Part shown: piece after piece, positions 3,800-14,730 of the stretch
How the letters are laid out: each line of letters begins with the position of its first letter
Numbering within the stretch: position 1 is the first letter of the stretch
NCBI GenBank assembly: GCA_964587565.1
Contig: CAZPLK010000013.1
Coordinates: 1-14,730 of the forward strand
Direction: 5' to 3'
Source of the DNA: an uncultured Muribaculaceae bacterium
GTDB lineage: Bacteria > Bacillota_I > Bacilli_A > RF39 > UBA660
DNA length: 14,730 nt
Made by a program: the position numbers and the translations under genes
The notes under the pieces: model-generated
What the model was told of the DNA's origin: nothing
Database searches by the model: none
The model's input: only the letters and a program-made list of their open reading frames with translations

Positions 3800-4732
3800 T
3801 TATAAATTTATAATTTCCCGCCAATTATCAGGAAATCCGATTTTATTTAATATTGTGTTTAATGGTACTGTTTTGACTTTACCTTCTAAAATATTAATTT
3901 CATAACCAATTTCATATATAAACTCCCTAAACTCATCATCAGTAAGCATTTGTTTCATAATTATAACCAGAGCATATAAATCATTTTTCCCAAAATTATA
4001 TTCATCATTTGTCATATCTATATTTAATAAATAATGATATTTTGTATCTGGAATTCTTCTTTGAGTTCTATGATCATAAAGTATATCTTCGTGAGCACAT
4101 AAATTTCTATAATTAGCAAGCATTGATAAATATACTGTTAAATTTTCAGGCTCCAAATCATACGTATTAGAAAGTTCAATTTGATCTTCTGGTTTTAATA
4201 TATTAAATAATTCAGCAACTATTCCAAATGATAATACTTTCACTAGTATCCACATTGGTATATAACCATAATTACTTAAATAATGCATTGTCGCAGTATG
4301 TTGTTTACCATTTACCCTTATTTGCCTTTTCATTTTATTTAAAACGTCATTAACTTGTTTAGTTTTGTAACTGTCTTGATTAAAGTTTTTAGGGTCCAAA
4401 TATTTCTTTTCTTTAAAACCATATTTTCTAGATAACGTATAACTAATTTTTGATTTAATGTTGTTTTCAACAATTAAAATATATTTAAACATAATATTTC
4501 TAATTTTCCTATCGAAAACAAAAGTTGCATATAATTCCTCAAATGTCGTACCAGGAAAAAATCTCCTATCCCTATGAGAACGCATAAACAAGTGACGATA
4601 TCCACTTATAAAAAAATAATTTTCTCTATATAAAATATCTTTAGCTTTTTCAGGAAAATCAATAACTAAACCTTTATTTCTTAATATTTCAATTTGTTCA
4701 TCTAATGTCCGAAATATTTTACTGCCCATCAT
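3800..4732 (-). CDS. Abi_2-family protein (AbiD/AbiD1/AbiF-like abortive-infection domain)
   Basis: 310 aa. The N-terminus (F-TLDEQIEILRNKGLVI...AKDILYRENYFFISGYRHLF) and the overall length and helical pattern match my memory of the Abi_2 (PF07751) family. RBS AGGTGAT upstream. Confidence 0.7.
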   Translation of the reverse strand: MMGSKIFRTLDEQIEILRNKGLVIDFPEKAKDILYRENYFFISGYRHLFMRSHRDRRFFPGTTFEELYATFVFDRKIRNIMFKYILIVENNIKSKISYTLSRKYGFKEKKYLDPKNFNQDSYKTKQVNDVLNKMKRQIRVNGKQHTATMHYLSNYGYIPMWILVKVLSFGIVAELFNILKPEDQIELSNTYDLEPENLTVYLSMLANYRNLCAHEDILYDHRTQRRIPDTKYHYLLNIDMTNDEYNFGKNDLYALVIIMKQMLTDDEFREFIYEIGYEINILEGKVKTVPLNTILNKIGFPDNWREIINL

Positions 4733-12038: not shown

Positions 12039-13226
12039 TTATTTTAAAACGACTTTAAAGTACCATTTAGATACTTTAAAATAATTCCAAAAATTTACAT
12101 GTAATATATTAATTAATTTACTACGCAAATAGTAAGTATTAAAATGTAATAAAAGTCCTAAATAAGAATTCAATATTGCTTGAATCTTTTTAACGTCTTT
12201 TTCGCATAAATTTTGTTCTAACAATGTGTTAACATAGGCAATCGCACAGTAAAAATTATTTTTAACTCTCGGTGTAATATACCTCCTCCATGGTTTTATG
12301 TAAGCCCCTAAAAATTCAACGCCATGAGTAATATTTTGTAAATATATTTTATTAGGATGAAGTTCAAGTTGTAAATTATTTTTAAGAAATTCTTGTATTT
12401 TGGGTATGCAATCTTTTAATTCTTCTCTTGAGGTAGATAATAAAAAAAAGTCATCAACATATCTACCATAAAATTTTATTTTTAATTTACTTTTAACAAA
12501 ATGGTCCAAAGAATTTAAATAGAAATTAGAAAAAATTTGACTAGTATAGTTGCCAATAGGAAGTCCACAATTTTCATTAGTATGAAAAAGACTTTTAGAT
12601 TTGGGAAGACCATCCCATTTACTATAAGAACATTTAATTGTGCAATTGTTAGTGGCATCATTTAAAATTATTAATTGGCATAACCAAATTAATTTCTCTT
12701 TATCATTATAAATATATTTTAGTTTTAAAAAGTTTTCTAGTTTTTCTAATAATATAAGTTTATTTATACTCATAAAATAACTTTTAATATCTAATTTCAA
12801 AACATAAGCATCGCGATTATAATTATGAGTAATTTTTCTAATAAATTTGTTTAACCGATTAATTCCAAATAAGGTTCCCTTACCCTTTCTACAACTATAA
12901 GAATCATAAATAAATTCACGTTCAAACATCTTTTCTAATTTCATTACAATTAAATGATGAATAACCCTATCCCTAAAAGACGAGGCACAAATTTCCCGTT
13001 TAACAGGCTTTTCAACTATAAAAAAAGAAGTAGGACTTATTTTATAATCCCCACTTTTTACTTCTTCCCATAACTCTATTAAATTTTCCTCATAGTCAAT
13101 ATCAAATTCTAGACAGTCAAGTTTACTCTTTTTATTTTTACGACATTGATAATATGCCTTAAAAAAGTCTTCTAAGCAAATATCATTAAGTTCTTCAGTT
13201 AATACAAAATCATTTAATCTGCTCAT
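12039..13226 (-). CDS. DGR-type reverse transcriptase
   Basis: 395 aa from the ATG at 13226, which is preceded by an AAGGAG RBS. RT motifs are present: KREICASSFRDRVIHH, YVLKLDIKSYFMSI, the DGR-diagnostic motif 4 LPIGNYTSQ (IGxxxSQ), YGRYVDDFF (YxDD) and HGVEFLGAYI. There is no endonuclease or maturase extension. It lies immediately 3' of the TR. Confidence 0.93.
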   Translation of the reverse strand: MSRLNDFVLTEELNDICLEDFFKAYYQCRKNKKSKLDCLEFDIDYEENLIELWEEVKSGDYKISPTSFFIVEKPVKREICASSFRDRVIHHLIVMKLEKMFEREFIYDSYSCRKGKGTLFGINRLNKFIRKITHNYNRDAYVLKLDIKSYFMSINKLILLEKLENFLKLKYIYNDKEKLIWLCQLIILNDATNNCTIKCSYSKWDGLPKSKSLFHTNENCGLPIGNYTSQIFSNFYLNSLDHFVKSKLKIKFYGRYVDDFFLLSTSREELKDCIPKIQEFLKNNLQLELHPNKIYLQNITHGVEFLGAYIKPWRRYITPRVKNNFYCAIAYVNTLLEQNLCEKDVKKIQAILNSYLGLLLHFNTYYLRSKLINILHVNFWNYFKVSKWYFKVVLK

Positions 13227-13252
13227 ATAATAATCTCCTTTAATTGTAATAA

Positions 13253-13435
13253 GTCCCAAAACGCAACGAACCGAGCGACCGTTACTCTGACTGTTGTCGT
13301 TGCGATTAACACCATCATTAGAAGAGTTCATGTTACGTCTCCAAGCATTCGAACCTGAGAGAGAAGACGTCCACCAATTACCGTTAGACCCAACATTGTT
13401 GATCGTACCAGAGGTGTTACGGTTACCAGCAGGCA
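13253..13435 (-). repeat. DGR template repeat (TR)
   Basis: 183 bp, collinear with 14505-14687 at a constant offset of 1252 with no indels. 165 of 183 positions are identical. All 18 mismatches are T on the plus strand here, which is A on the coding (minus) strand. Its conceptual translation is Asn-rich, with 14 AAY codons. Confidence 0.95.
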
Positions 13436-13594
13436 ATCAAATAGTAAAATGACTCCTAAAAGCGTTTAAAGTGACTACTGTACTCGTCCGCATATTCTCG
13501 TGAATACCGACATATAAATCCCAAAAAATCGGGGAGTCACCGGACTTAATAGGCACACTCCTAAACAGCAGTACCATTTAGAACTCCGGCCAAG
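13436..13594 (-). ncRNA. GC-enriched noncoding segment between the avd stop and the TR; candidate structured 5' portion of the DGR template RNA
   Basis: 159 nt with no ORF. My hand count gives about 42% GC (65 of 154 nt counted), against about 25% in the neighbouring avd and RT genes. It is contiguous with the TR on the same strand. The function is inferred only. Confidence 0.35.
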
Positions 13595-13954
13595 TCAATT
13601 TTTTAAAAATTTTTCCCACCCTATAAGTTGCCTTCTAACATTTTCCATTTTTACACTTACTTCAACATGTTCATCTATACTTATTTGATGAAGATCATGT
13701 AACAATCGAAACAACAATCTAATCACTTCTATATTTTCAATAGCAGCCTCAACTTTATTTAATTTTAAATTTTTCTCCCTTATCTTATTTGCTCGATATA
13801 CATTCATTAGCAAATCAGTCATTTCATTTTTAATTTTTTCACCTAAAGTATACTTATATTCACGGGATAAATTCTTTATTAATTTAAAACTATCAAGTAA
13901 CAATTCATAGCTTACCTTATAAACAGGAAGTTCAATAGCCTTTGATTTACTCAT
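13595..13954 (-). CDS. avd: Avd-type DGR accessory protein (four-helix-bundle, 23S rRNA-IVS protein family)
   Basis: 119 aa, all-helical and basic. The pattern LPVYK.SYEL...L.K.LSREYKYTLGEKI......L...YRAN...........IE.IE.IRLLFRLLHDL..IS......V......V.RQL.GW.K is typical of Avd/TIGR02436-like proteins. It sits immediately upstream of the TR. The start overlaps the upstream ORF's stop (ATGAGTAA). Confidence 0.82.
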   Translation of the reverse strand: MSKSKAIELPVYKVSYELLLDSFKLIKNLSREYKYTLGEKIKNEMTDLLMNVYRANKIREKNLKLNKVEAAIENIEVIRLLFRLLHDLHQISIDEHVEVSVKMENVRRQLIGWEKFLKN

Positions 13955-14300
13955 TATCCATCAATATTTTTCTATAATAATTTAGTTTATCCAAAGCTTC
14001 TTCAGCAGTTATGTCTTTACTTGCCTTTATATCTTCTATTACATAATCAACAGTACTTAAAACAATTTCATAATCATATTCCAATAACTCAATAAATTTT
14101 ATATAAGTATCTATTTTTTCTGATGGAAAACCACATTTGTTTGTTAATTTAGAAAATTTTGTCAACTTTAAACCTAATTCTTCAGACATAAGTTTAGCAT
14201 CTTCCCCTAAAAATATATAAAACTTACCCACTTTAAACAAATATAGTTTGTTCTTATCGTCTTTTTTCTTACTCAAATATTTTTTATATAACTTACTCAT
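13947..14300 (-). CDS. Small MutS-domain-I-like protein (mismatch-binding-domain homolog only); candidate DGR accessory factor
   Basis: 117 aa. LYKKYLSKKKDDKNKLYLFKVGKFYIFLGEDAKLMSEELGLKLTKFSKLTNKCGFPSEKIDTYIKFI aligns by eye with E. coli MutS residues about 13-80 ([46 protein letters not shown]....MAGIPYHAVENYLAKL). There are no connector, clamp or ATPase domains. AGGAG RBS. 8-nt overlap with avd. Confidence 0.7.
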   Translation of the reverse strand: MSKLYKKYLSKKKDDKNKLYLFKVGKFYIFLGEDAKLMSEELGLKLTKFSKLTNKCGFPSEKIDTYIKFIELLEYDYEIVLSTVDYVIEDIKASKDITAEEALDKLNYYRKILMDNE

Positions 14301-14334
14301 CTTTTCTCCTTATAACTTCTACAAATTTTAGTTT

Positions 14335-14380
14335 TTTTAAAAAATTCTGTTGTCACTAGCCTCAAAAGGCTAGTGACAAC
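14335..14380 (-). terminator. Strong rho-independent terminator downstream of the DGR target gene
   Basis: Perfect 13-bp stem (14349-14361 pairs with 14368-14380) with a 6-nt loop. On the minus strand it is followed by AGAAUUUUUUAAAAAAAC. Confidence 0.65.
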
Positions 14381-14438
14381 CTTTAAATTTGTTTATTAAC
14401 ACTTTTCATTGCATGGATTAAAAAAATTATTTACTAAG

Positions 14439-14458
14439 CCATGGCGTAAACGCCATGG
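14439..14458 (-). promoter_or_regulatory. GC-rich hairpin (8-bp stem, 4-nt loop) downstream of the VR
   Basis: CCATGGCG-TAAA-CGCCATGG is a perfect inverted repeat (14439-14446 pairs with 14451-14458) in an otherwise AT-rich spacer. Its role in DGR target recognition or transcript stability is inferred. Confidence 0.4.
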
Positions 14459-14474
14459 AAAGTGGAAGGGTGAA

Positions 14475-14497
14475 GCCTAAGTCCTTACGGACTTGGC
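14475..14497 (-). promoter_or_regulatory. Hairpin immediately 3' of the VR and target stop codon; candidate DGR target-recognition (cruciform) element
   Basis: In minus-strand sense the sequence is GCC-AAGUCC-GUAA-GGACUU-A-GGC: 6+3 bp with one bulge and a GNRA-type GUAA loop. It starts 2 nt after the TAA stop and 7 nt after the last VR base. No equivalent hairpin follows the TR. Confidence 0.5.
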
Positions 14498-14499
14498 GG

Positions 14500-14730
14500 T
14501 TAATGTCCCAAAACGCAACGAACCGAGCGACCGTAACTCTGACTGTAGTCGACGCGATGAACACCATCATTAGAAGAGAACATGAAACGCCTCCAAGCAT
14601 CCGAACCTGAGAGAGAAGACGTCCACCAATTACCGCCAGACCCAACATTGCCGATCGCACCAGAGGCGTTACGGTGACCAGCAGGCAGGGCACTAAACCC
14701 ATAATCATCTGTTCCACCCATAACTACTGC
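14500..14730 (-). CDS. DGR target protein, C-terminal fragment (C-type-lectin-fold variable domain, FISUMP/DUF1566-like); the 5' part lies outside the window
   Basis: The reading frame is open to the window edge (AVVMGGTDDYGFSALPAGHRNASGAIGNVGSGGNWWTSSLSGSDAWRRFMFSSNDGVHRVDYSQSYGRSVRCVLGH*). The GFSALPAG...G..WW(S/T)SS...AW......G........G.SVRCV pattern matches my memory of the Fibrobacter-succinogenes-major-paralogous/DUF1566 type of DGR variable domains. The VR occupies the extreme C-terminus. Confidence 0.85.
   Translation of the reverse strand, partial: AVVMGGTDDYGFSALPAGHRNASGAIGNVGSGGNWWTSSLSGSDAWRRFMFSSNDGVHRVDYSQSYGRSVRCVLGH
14505..14687 (-). repeat. DGR variable repeat (VR), inside the 3' end of the target gene
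   Basis: It is the 183-bp counterpart of TR 13253-13435. At the 18 mismatches the VR carries A, C or G on the plus strand where the TR has T. The 30 nt at the 3' end in coding sense (14505-14534) are identical to the TR and GC-rich, which resembles an IMH (initiation of mutagenic homing) element. Confidence 0.95.

Follow-up and report, generated by a model that had tools for sequence, protein, structure and literature searches.

In this study, we analyzed a diversity-generating retroelement (DGR) carried on a 14,730-nt stretch of DNA from an uncultured AT-rich bacterium (contig CAZPLK010000013.1; hereafter the window, to whose whole length all coordinates refer), and found that the interval between its avd gene and its template repeat (TR) encodes a structured RNA resembling the Rfam motif RT-7, a single-stranded junction of which (J) is complementary to the 3' end of the TR (J'). 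On the evidence of its genes and repeats, the element is a chromosomal DGR of the Architecture D type, with a target gene ending in a variable repeat (VR), an accessory gene for a stand-alone MutS domain I (MSL), avd, the TR and a reverse transcriptase (RT) gene, every part of which lies on the minus strand. The element itself is ordinary, being a further Architecture D DGR with a target of category 'd', and the traits flagged as unusual in the original prediction are conserved traits of its lineage. No earlier description of an RT-7-like RNA in the avd–TR spacer of a major DGR clade, or of a helix between J and the TR end, was found in the searchable literature, the coverage of which is incomplete, so that one may exist. 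We propose that the J:J' pairing selects the template and fixes the site at which synthesis of complementary DNA (cDNA) is initiated, and that it probably also supplies the primer in cis. With its shown and inferred parts taken jointly, we put the probability of the explanation as a whole at roughly 0.8.

The avd–TR spacer is 159 nt long and had been noticed as a GC-rich segment (~43% GC, the window as a whole averaging 27%) to which no function was assigned; it proved to be the most informative part of the element. The RT-7-like RNA occupies positions 13,457–13,597, starting at the avd stop codon, and has its core at 13,470–13,591. An E-value scan of the window with Rfam returned a single match, to RT-7 (RF03028) at 13,464–13,590 on the minus strand (37.5 bits, E = 6.8e-6), which spans the whole model, with two variable insertions shortened from 51 to 6 nt and from 44 to 27 nt. 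Relatives (loci labeled by L and a number, such as L003, those from L083 to L087 being metagenomic) included the ~80 best-matching loci of the RT clade; genome contigs were queried with an alignment, a single-sequence query having come back empty. Matches to RT-7 were also present in the avd–TR spacers of L015, L005, L006, L007, L065, L064, L058, L051 and L082, reaching 78.8 bits (E = 1.7e-16). At the gathering threshold, Rfam gave no match to an RT family in 20 related loci, and as all scores are below the gathering score, the relatives stand outside the curated RT-7 family.

A consensus built from ten alignable spacers has 36 pairs in five helices, and its architecture begins with a GGC/GCC stem around an 11-bp hairpin (P1); after a single-stranded junction comes a domain of two or three hairpins, which the 7-bp helix P2 closes. 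In this consensus 98.1% of the cells are paired, against 41–51% in controls with slid partners, and 12 pairs show compensatory changes compared with 3.9 ± 1.4 in shuffled data, in which none of 500 shuffles reached 12. The covariance model R1 scores the window RNA at 145 bits, and the iterated model R2 detected the RNA in ~66 of the ~80 loci, always on the RT strand and always at the avd stop, as well as in several relatives on phage contigs. From this spread over the clade, the RNA is tied to the RT clade and not to the MSL-bearing elements. A candidate pseudoknot between CCGGA in the internal loop of P1 and TCCGG in the junction was rejected, being broken in L004, L096 and L015 and having a position (59) that covaries with P2. 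In one locus (L057, 2,100–2,134, plus strand), a match to the DUF805b RNA (RF02914; 36.2 bits, just over the gathering score of 35.6) lies upstream of the DGR.

J (UAAGUCC, 13,542–13,548) is located in the single-stranded junction between P1 and P2, and J' (GGACUUA, 13,250–13,256), which is complementary to it, consists of the last 4 nt of the TR and the next 3 nt; the invariant junction UUAAGUCC (13,542–13,549) is the reverse complement of GGACUUA. At least ten distinct sequence classes of J:J' were identified in which both sides change together. These include AAGTCC/GGACTT, AAATCC/GGATTT (in L083 and, independently, in L065), AAGTTC/GAACTT (L084), GAGTCC/GGACTC (L080) and CCTAGTT/AACTAGG (L029, 8/8), and, among more distant loci, GTTTAAAA/TTTTAAAC (13 bp in L025), GGTTCAAAA/TTTTGAACC, TTTGAAAAG/CTTTTCAAA, TATTTAAAA/TTTTAAATA and GTTGAA.../...TTCAAC. 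In a fixed-position test, with the J' partner set 5 or 6 nt past the last Cys codon of the TR, J matched its own partner at a mean of 5.50 of 6 positions versus 3.91 for crossed partners (permutation P < 5e-6), and only 1 of 124 crossed pairs was perfect (P = 3.5e-5 for the count of perfect matches); a looser window scan of the same complementarity gave P = 2.5e-4. In addition, RNAalifold, when given seven sequences from avd stop to RT start, produced unaided a 7-bp J:J' helix that is paired in 7/7, has two compensatory pairs and abuts P2. This covariation shows a J:J' helix which, as predicted from the alignments, stacks on P2 and closes a single loop that holds the P2 domain together with the entire TR. 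J is followed by a purine, the first base of P2, and the position just 5' of J' is mostly occupied by G.

Two predictions made from this pairing were borne out in part. TR/VR differences are less frequent at adenines in J' than at the remaining TR adenines (22% vs. 42%, P = 0.007), so that the prediction that the J' adenines are never mutated holds as a bias only. Over 32 loci, the better partner of J was the TR end in 19 and the VR end in 9 (P = 0.01), a tendency and not the rule that was predicted. Loci in which the VR end is favored include L013, L069, L064, L004, L061, L057 and L043; in L069, J matches the VR sequence GAACTAGAA at 9/9 positions, the TR there being GAACTCGAA. J may also pair with the VR end during homing. 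Among Bacteroidota loci (L016, L021, L023, L025, L031, L034 and L068, among others), a fixed difference between TR (GGGRTTTTAAAC) and VR (GGGCTTTTTAAC) recurs at the same positions in independent loci, and this difference at the 3' ends resembles the IMH*/IMH distinction of the DGR of phage BPP-1.

The identity of the element as a DGR is carried by its repeats. A repeat search of the window found one long direct repeat, of 183 nt and 90% identity, the copies of which are the TR (13,253–13,435) and the VR (14,505–14,687). The VR forms approximately the last 61 codons of the target gene and ends 2 nt ahead of its stop codon. All 18 mismatches fall on the 42 adenines of the TR (A>G 9, A>T 7, A>C 2), for which the hypergeometric probability is 1e-13, and they result in 12 amino-acid differences across 60 codons. 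Of the TR adenines, 39 are at codon position 1 or 2, with 14 AAY codons and a single codon that is mutable to a stop, an arrangement that allows ~1e25 DNA variants and ~1e23 protein variants. An adenine-only TR/VR pair, a DGR-type RT, a VR at the 3' end of the target and this placement of adenines were therefore all found in the window. Adenine-biased TR/VR pairs beside an RT, in the order VR-avd-spacer-TR-RT, were identified in 52 of the best 80 loci. Subclade contigs L095, L096, L098, L099 and L093 end within or beside the TR or VR, and the window probably ends inside its target because assemblies typically break at the DGR repeat. In L003 (1,191–3,542) the MSL-avd-RNA-TR unit is present twice in tandem, with 694 identical nt and 1,267 nt from start to start, which is either a true duplication of the accessory/template module or an assembly artefact at the TR/VR repeat. 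L083 (1–4,334) is a remnant in which the RT is missing and the target/VR, MSL, avd, RNA and TR are intact, with an HD-domain-like open reading frame (ORF) ~700 nt downstream.

The RT (12,039–13,226, 395 aa; RVT_1 E = 1.4e-21) starts at an ATG at 13,226 preceded by AAAGGAG, a start site that is shared by its homologs, which are 394–403 aa long. Its motifs LPIGNYTSQ and YVDD, which had been named as evidence of a DGR RT, are invariant across 36 homologs. The best match in the PDB is bRT, the RT of the Bordetella phage DGR (8UB7, E = 1e-27), followed by group II intron RTs (1e-8) and retron RTs (1e-4), and the NCBIfam models for group II, retron and DRT proteins score far under their cutoffs on the window RT (retron 50.3 vs. 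235). The element is not a retron as defined by a retron-clade RT with msr-msd/msDNA, its likeness to retrons being confined to the topology of its RNA. The RT family matches at least 589 species-representative genomes of Bacteroidota, phyla of the candidate phyla radiation, Actinomycetota, Proteobacteria, Spirochaetes and Bacilli. In this wider clade the median lengths are 56 nt for the TR–RT gap, in which one terminator-like hairpin is usual, and 156 nt for the avd–TR spacer. In the MSL subclade, however, the gap is 5–26 nt without structure, and in the window it is 26 nt with a minimum free energy (MFE) of 0. The loss of the post-TR hairpin, leaving a very short gap, is the sole lineage trait that is special to the MSL subclade. 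A downstream spacer RNA (Sp) of the kind found in BPP-1, which is structured and ~140 nt long, is thus absent from the window, in which RT-10 was likewise not found by Rfam. A search for a hidden Sp-like element in the 5' codons of the RT found no marked excess of synonymous conservation (0.81–0.85 vs. 0.78), a weak test given the AT-biased codon usage. Gracilibacteria use an alternative code in which UGA is a sense codon; the RT and avd ORFs of four metagenome-assembled genomes (MAGs) of this group (L013, L029, L061 and L069) look broken under genetic code 11, and their DGRs are probably intact. In L032 (3,982–4,057, minus strand), the last few bases of the DGR RT ORF are overlapped on the opposite strand by a match to group II intron domain V/VI (RF00029), which at 62 bits exceeds its gathering score.

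Directly upstream of the spacer, avd (13,595–13,954) encodes a basic protein of 119 aa (pI 9.40), which matches bAvd at 56.1 bits against a cutoff of 40 and DivGenRetAVD (NF033474) of NCBIfam at 54.2 bits against a cutoff of 80 (E = 1.5e-14), a match below equivalog level. The start of avd is overlapped by 8 nt by the end of the MSL gene (13,947–14,300, 117 aa, pI 7.67), and an overlap of 8–11 nt exists in every subclade locus. MSL matches MutS_I (E = 5.9e-13, 49.5 bits against a cutoff of 20.6), and its AF2 (AlphaFold) model has a pLDDT of 94.6. All 47 Foldseek matches of the model to the PDB at E ≤ 0.001 are domain I of MutS/MSH chains, aligned over ~65–99 residues, mostly with a root-mean-square deviation of 1.3–2.0 Å, and two extra helices follow. 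By comparison with Taq MutS, the Phe of the F-x-E mismatch wedge is retained and the Glu is replaced by Ile. A wider check of 120 small stand-alone homologs (66–143 aa) from 1,719 matches found that this site is aromatic-aromatic-aliphatic in 116 and has the Glu in none. Within the RT clade, MSL is restricted to the closest subclade (L003, L004, L005, L015 and the metagenomic L083–L087), in which the order target-MSL-avd-RNA-TR-RT is kept in ~10 independent loci. No relatives of MSL were found among IMG/VR viral contigs, and a Pfam scan gave no match to HRDC in the window DGR. In L088 (549–2,404), a more distant RT comes straight after MSL and avd, the intervening spacer and TR being absent, and in L092 (732–2,052) the RT is ahead of MSL.

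Wu et al. (2018; PMC5758913) described MSL as one of four classes of DGR accessory protein and defined Architecture D by it; their MSL proteins are 112–283 aa, of neutral pI and invariably found with avd, and one is in the Legionella DGR. The window MSL agrees with that description in size, neutral pI, MutS homology, the presence of avd and the lack of an HRDC match, and the novelty that had been attached to an "extra accessory gene" therefore does not hold, as Msl is also published from Bacteroides. In that genus, Msl is present in 3/5 DGRs that diversify pilus tip proteins, and deletion of the host mutS raises VR mutagenesis 5–10 fold (bioRxiv 10.1101/2024.11.15.621889).

The target gene is represented in the window by its 3' end only (14,500–14,730, 76 codons and stop), a C-type-lectin-like C-terminus of the FISUMP/Fib_succ_major class that is cut by the contig end. 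Its scores are just under the cutoffs because it is a gene fragment (Fib_succ_major E = 1.5e-7, 32.3 bits vs. 33.9; TIGR02145 39.6 vs. 41.65); full-length or longer targets of relatives score 84–107 bits, in agreement with the lectin fold that had been proposed. FISUMP/Fib_succ_major is Wu's target category 'd' (CLec2), the class of Legionella LdtA. Complete targets in L094 (1,147–2,181) and L004 (2,052–3,158) have a prepilin N-terminal cleavage/methylation domain (TIGR02532, N_methyl) as well as FISUMP/Fib_succ_major, and by analogy with them the window target probably resembles a type IV pilin and bears a variable lectin domain at its tip.

Downstream of the target stop, the subclade shares a series of elements consisting of a hairpin (hairpin 1), a pyrimidine tract, another strong hairpin, a stretch rich in A and, immediately ahead of MSL, a terminator-like hairpin. 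In the window, hairpin 1 (CCGCC-AAGTCC-GTAA-GGACTT-AGGC, 14,475–14,499) begins 1 nt past the stop. Its position is kept in nine subclade loci, and its inner stem covaries (GTCC/GGAC, GCAC/GTGC, GCCC/GGGC, GCTC/GAGC, GCCA/TGGC). As the post-VR hairpins of BPP-1 and Legionella are needed for homing, hairpin 1 is a candidate, and likely, target-recognition element. Although the window hairpin contains the same sequence as J:J' (AAGTCC-GTAA-GGACTT), the idea that it mimics this helix was rejected as resting on a coincidence, because the stems GTCC/GGAC in L083 (J AAATCC) and GCCC/GGGT in L084 (J AAGTTC) do not track J. The pyrimidine tract (TTCACCCTTCCACTTTCC, 14,457–14,474) follows, and its counterpart TTTCACTTTYCACTTTCC was also observed after hairpin 1 in L003, L004, L015, L083, L084, L085, L087 and L090; this conserved tract between the hairpins could be part of the homing target site. 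Hairpin 2 (CCATGGCG-TTTA-CGCCATGG, 14,439–14,458) was read off the sequence, and at its place relatives have a strong hairpin of other sequence. The interval between target and MSL also contains an intrinsic-terminator-like hairpin (14,339–14,380) with a 14-bp stem, 7 GC pairs, a loop of 4 and a T-run, in a scan that found four terminator-like sites against 0.9 expected. The terminator claimed for this interval thus exists, and an equivalent strong hairpin is present ahead of MSL in the subclade, with a T-run in several loci (L083, L084, L085).

We propose a mechanism in which MSL, avd, the RNA, the TR and the RT would be expressed as one transcription unit, with the terminator insulating the target gene, and in which Avd and the RT would bind the structured RNA. 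The J:J' helix would then offer the 3' end of the TR to the RT, so that cDNA synthesis would begin just 5' of J', most likely primed from the 2'-OH at the J/P2 boundary in a manner comparable to the a1/a2 stem of retrons and to Sp A56 of BPP-1. The adenine-mutagenized cDNA would replace the VR, with the post-VR hairpin as guide, and MSL might protect the cDNA:VR heteroduplex, with its dense mismatches, from host mismatch repair by binding to it. We hold the identification of J:J' as the initiation duplex tentatively, at somewhat less than even odds. The broader claim, that the RT-7-like RNA is an upstream equivalent of the BPP-1 Sp in a permuted architecture (serving template choice, start site and cis-primer) throughout this very widespread and mostly cellular clade, and that MSL acts as a decoy in the MSL subclade, is possible and yet somewhat more doubtful.

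The BPP-1 cDNA synthesis RNA comprises 20 nt of avd, the TR and 140 nt of downstream Sp; in it, Sp 53–56 pairs with TR 118–121, priming is from the 2'-OH of Sp A56, copying starts at TR G117, and a second duplex, avd:Sp, is a stop. Since that second duplex is a stop element, J:J' could likewise be a closing or stop helix. In this alternative, the upstream RNA would be only a protein-binding scaffold or a closing/stop element, with priming from an Sp-like site in the 5' part of the RT ORF, from a nicked RNA 3'-OH or from a primer in trans. It has in its favor that the BPP-1 segment upstream of the TR pairs with the downstream Sp for termination, that an alternative mode of priming, by nicked template RNA, has been reported (PMC5703328), that J prefers the VR end in 9/32 loci and that the J' adenines are incompletely protected. 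However, the P2 domain and a linker of 30–40 nt part J from the 5' end of the TR and would make it a poor stop signal at that boundary, whereas J' is exactly at the 3' limit of TR/VR homology, which is the place expected for initiation. In addition, the 5–26 nt between TR and RT ATG in the subclade leave no room for a BPP-1-like downstream spacer, and the 5' codons of the RT have no marked excess of synonymous conservation. We regard this alternative as unlikely, though not negligible. A cis-regulatory leader, in which the spacer RNA and J:J' would act on RT translation or on transcript stability or processing, outside the reverse-transcription machinery, is improbable. Ribosome access could indeed be affected in the subclade, where J' is 2–24 nt upstream of the Shine-Dalgarno/ATG of the RT, and the terminator-like hairpin after the TR in the wider clade suggests control at the transcript level, but the pairing is still kept in most of the clade, where J' is 50–100 nt from the RT start. 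Moreover, the RNA strictly accompanies avd and the TR, with its start at the avd stop, a templating role would predict pairing at precisely the TR boundary, and Weinberg et al. (2017) likewise proposed that RT motifs act within retroelements. Several further observations weigh against an initiating J:J' helix in an RT-7-like RNA and against parts of the explanation around it. The covariation of J and J' fits RNA pairing and a DNA inverted repeat alike, 11 of 49 J' adenines differ between TR and VR, J fits the VR end better in the 9 loci mentioned, the RT-7 score is 37.5 bits where the gathering score is 116.8, a sigma-70-like promoter was not detected ahead of MSL, and the pilin-like nature of the window target is taken from relatives, its own gene being cut.

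For MSL, the shield from mismatch repair that we propose is a role we would place a little short of an even chance. A protein such as MSL, which has domain I only and lacks all ATPase and clamp domains, cannot signal to MutL, and shielding is the simpler role because host MutS antagonizes DGR output. Alternatively, MSL might promote retrohoming without any shielding, for example by aiding integration through recognition or stabilization of the cDNA:target heteroduplex, or by bringing in host factors. The wedge Phe and DNA-binding fold that MSL has kept would suit such a role, as would its constant company with avd, the start of which it overlaps in every subclade locus, and many AT-rich reduced Bacilli may lack MutS/MutL. 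On the other hand, most RTs of the same clade function without MSL, which is therefore not essential to the core mechanism, and the antagonism of host MutS is known; we consider a positive role in retrohoming rather unlikely. Finally, it is highly improbable that TR and VR arose by ordinary paralogous duplication or that the element is a decayed, inactive relic. The element is indeed known from sequence alone, which also weighs on its identification in general, its target is truncated in the assembly and an RT-less remnant exists among its relatives (L083). Yet the restriction of all mismatches to adenine at P = 1e-13, the four intact ORFs with catalytic YVDD and LPIGNYTSQ, and the placement of adenines at codon positions 1 and 2 are difficult to reconcile with decay or ordinary duplication.

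The original prediction had read the region as a single co-oriented DGR of target/VR, MutS-I-like ORF, avd, RNA segment, TR and RT, and this reading stands, all of its parts having been found where it placed them, in one orientation. It had pointed out that the ORF track obscures the system, in which the TR and the RT are indeed joined in a 465-aa ORF and the VR is spanned by two overlapping ones. The profile searches it suggested matched RVT_1, bAvd and MutS_I, with Fib_succ_major marginally below the cutoff, and neither of the outcomes that it named as fatal was observed, the mismatches being 100% adenine-restricted and the nearest RT being the DGR RT bRT. Its description of the DGR as complete is accurate for MSL, avd, RNA, TR and RT, and inaccurate for the target gene, the N-terminus of which is unrecoverable because the window is essentially the entire public contig (14,731 nt); the record is already whole, and other contigs with an identical MSL are only ~1 kb. 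The three departures from the textbook layout that it listed (the coupling and overlap of MSL and avd, the 26-nt TR–RT gap and the terminator) are real. The MSL-avd overlap and a terminator ahead of MSL recur in the close subclade, and the very short gap is peculiar to the MSL subclade.

The neighbors of the DGR in the window are housekeeping genes, namely hisS, rpsI, rplM, truA, ecfT/ecfA2/ecfA1 and genes for an HtrA-like protease, a copA-like protein and an amidase, and in relatives the DGRs have infB/rbfA, priA or ecf genes around them. The element therefore resides on a chromosome and not on a phage. Its nearest relatives are MAGs labeled Bacilli. Amid the housekeeping genes, ~7 kb from the DGR, a 310-aa protein of the abortive-infection family Abi_2 (Abi-like, E = 7e-41) is encoded at 3,800–4,732 on the minus strand. 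Two adjacent ORFs of 141 and 211 aa, with an 8-nt overlap, are located at 1,601–2,654 on the same strand and have no Pfam match at E ≤ 1e-5.

What is known of how DGRs carry out reverse transcription has so far rested on one phage element with its priming RNA downstream of the TR. The covarying helix described here ties an upstream RT-7 motif to the exact 3' end of the template in a clade of hundreds of genomes, thereby giving RT-7 a concrete biological context and predicting where cDNA would start in these DGRs. Knowledge of the minimal RNA would aid the porting of DGRs other than that of BPP-1 into engineered hypermutation systems. The consistent loss of the Glu in MSL, with the wedge Phe kept, frames a potential role against mismatch repair, and a DGR-diversified lectin tip on type IV pilin-like proteins would parallel the type V pilus tips of Bacteroides.

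Among known systems, the closest are the Architecture D DGRs (Wu et al. 2018, NAR 46:11), including that of Legionella pneumophila Corby. Like the window element, they encode a MutS-like protein of small size and neutral pI, on one strand with avd, the TR and the RT, and have a DUF1566/Fib_succ_major target (CLec2, category 'd') with a C-terminal VR, and they are cellular and not phage-borne. The window element differs in a host lineage of AT-rich Bacilli-like MAGs, in the prepilin methylation domain of its relatives' targets, in the subclade gap of 5–26 nt without a post-TR hairpin, and in the upstream RNA, which is absent from the 2018 description. The Msl DGRs of Bacteroides (bioRxiv 10.1101/2024.11.15.621889) also combine Avd and Msl with a variable, lectin-like, pilus-associated protein, and an interplay with host MutS is likely in both. 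However, they belong to another phylum, their targets are type V pilus tip adhesins whereas the signature of the window's relatives is type IV (N_methyl/TIGR02532), and the likeness of Msl is one of description.

As regards the RNA, Weinberg et al. (2017) reported the motifs RT-1 to RT-19 adjoining RT genes, of which only RT-10, in the BPP-1 TR–RT spacer, was linked to a DGR; they speculated that other RT motifs may belong to DGRs or retrons and gave no function for RT-7, the junction of which has the consensus AAAUUC in Rfam. The window RNA shares with RT-7 (RF03028) a 5' hairpin in a GGC/GCC stem, a junction, a multi-stem domain with a 7-bp closing helix and a location beside an RT gene, and differs from it as a compact variant below the gathering score. 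There is also a topological likeness to retrons. In the msr-msd RNA of retrons there is an a1/a2 stem and a branching G, with structured RNA 5' and the template 3'. The series P1-J-[P2 domain]-linker-TR-J' resembles a1, msr, msd and a2, with initiation predicted beside a purine at the helix end. In contrast to retrons, there is no kinship of sequence or RT clade, the cDNA would be made for mutagenic homing, and the branch is known for retrons only.

The most instructive comparison is with the BPP-1 DGR (Handa et al. 2018; 2024 cryo-EM preprint), which shares with the window element a homologous RT, Avd, adenine mutagenesis, a duplex at the TR 3' end and a post-VR hairpin. The survey of other DGRs in the BPP-1 study was limited to 40 nt on the upstream and 100 nt on the downstream side of the TR, and surveys with those limits would miss a permuted upstream RNA. 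In BPP-1, the Sp (Rfam RT-10) is downstream of the TR, avd abuts the TR and the strand serving as primer follows the template on its 3' side, whereas in the window the structured RNA is upstream, between avd and the TR, the partner strand of the TR end precedes the template on its 5' side and almost nothing lies downstream. BPP-1 is, moreover, phage-borne and without MSL, whereas the window element has MSL and is chromosomal.

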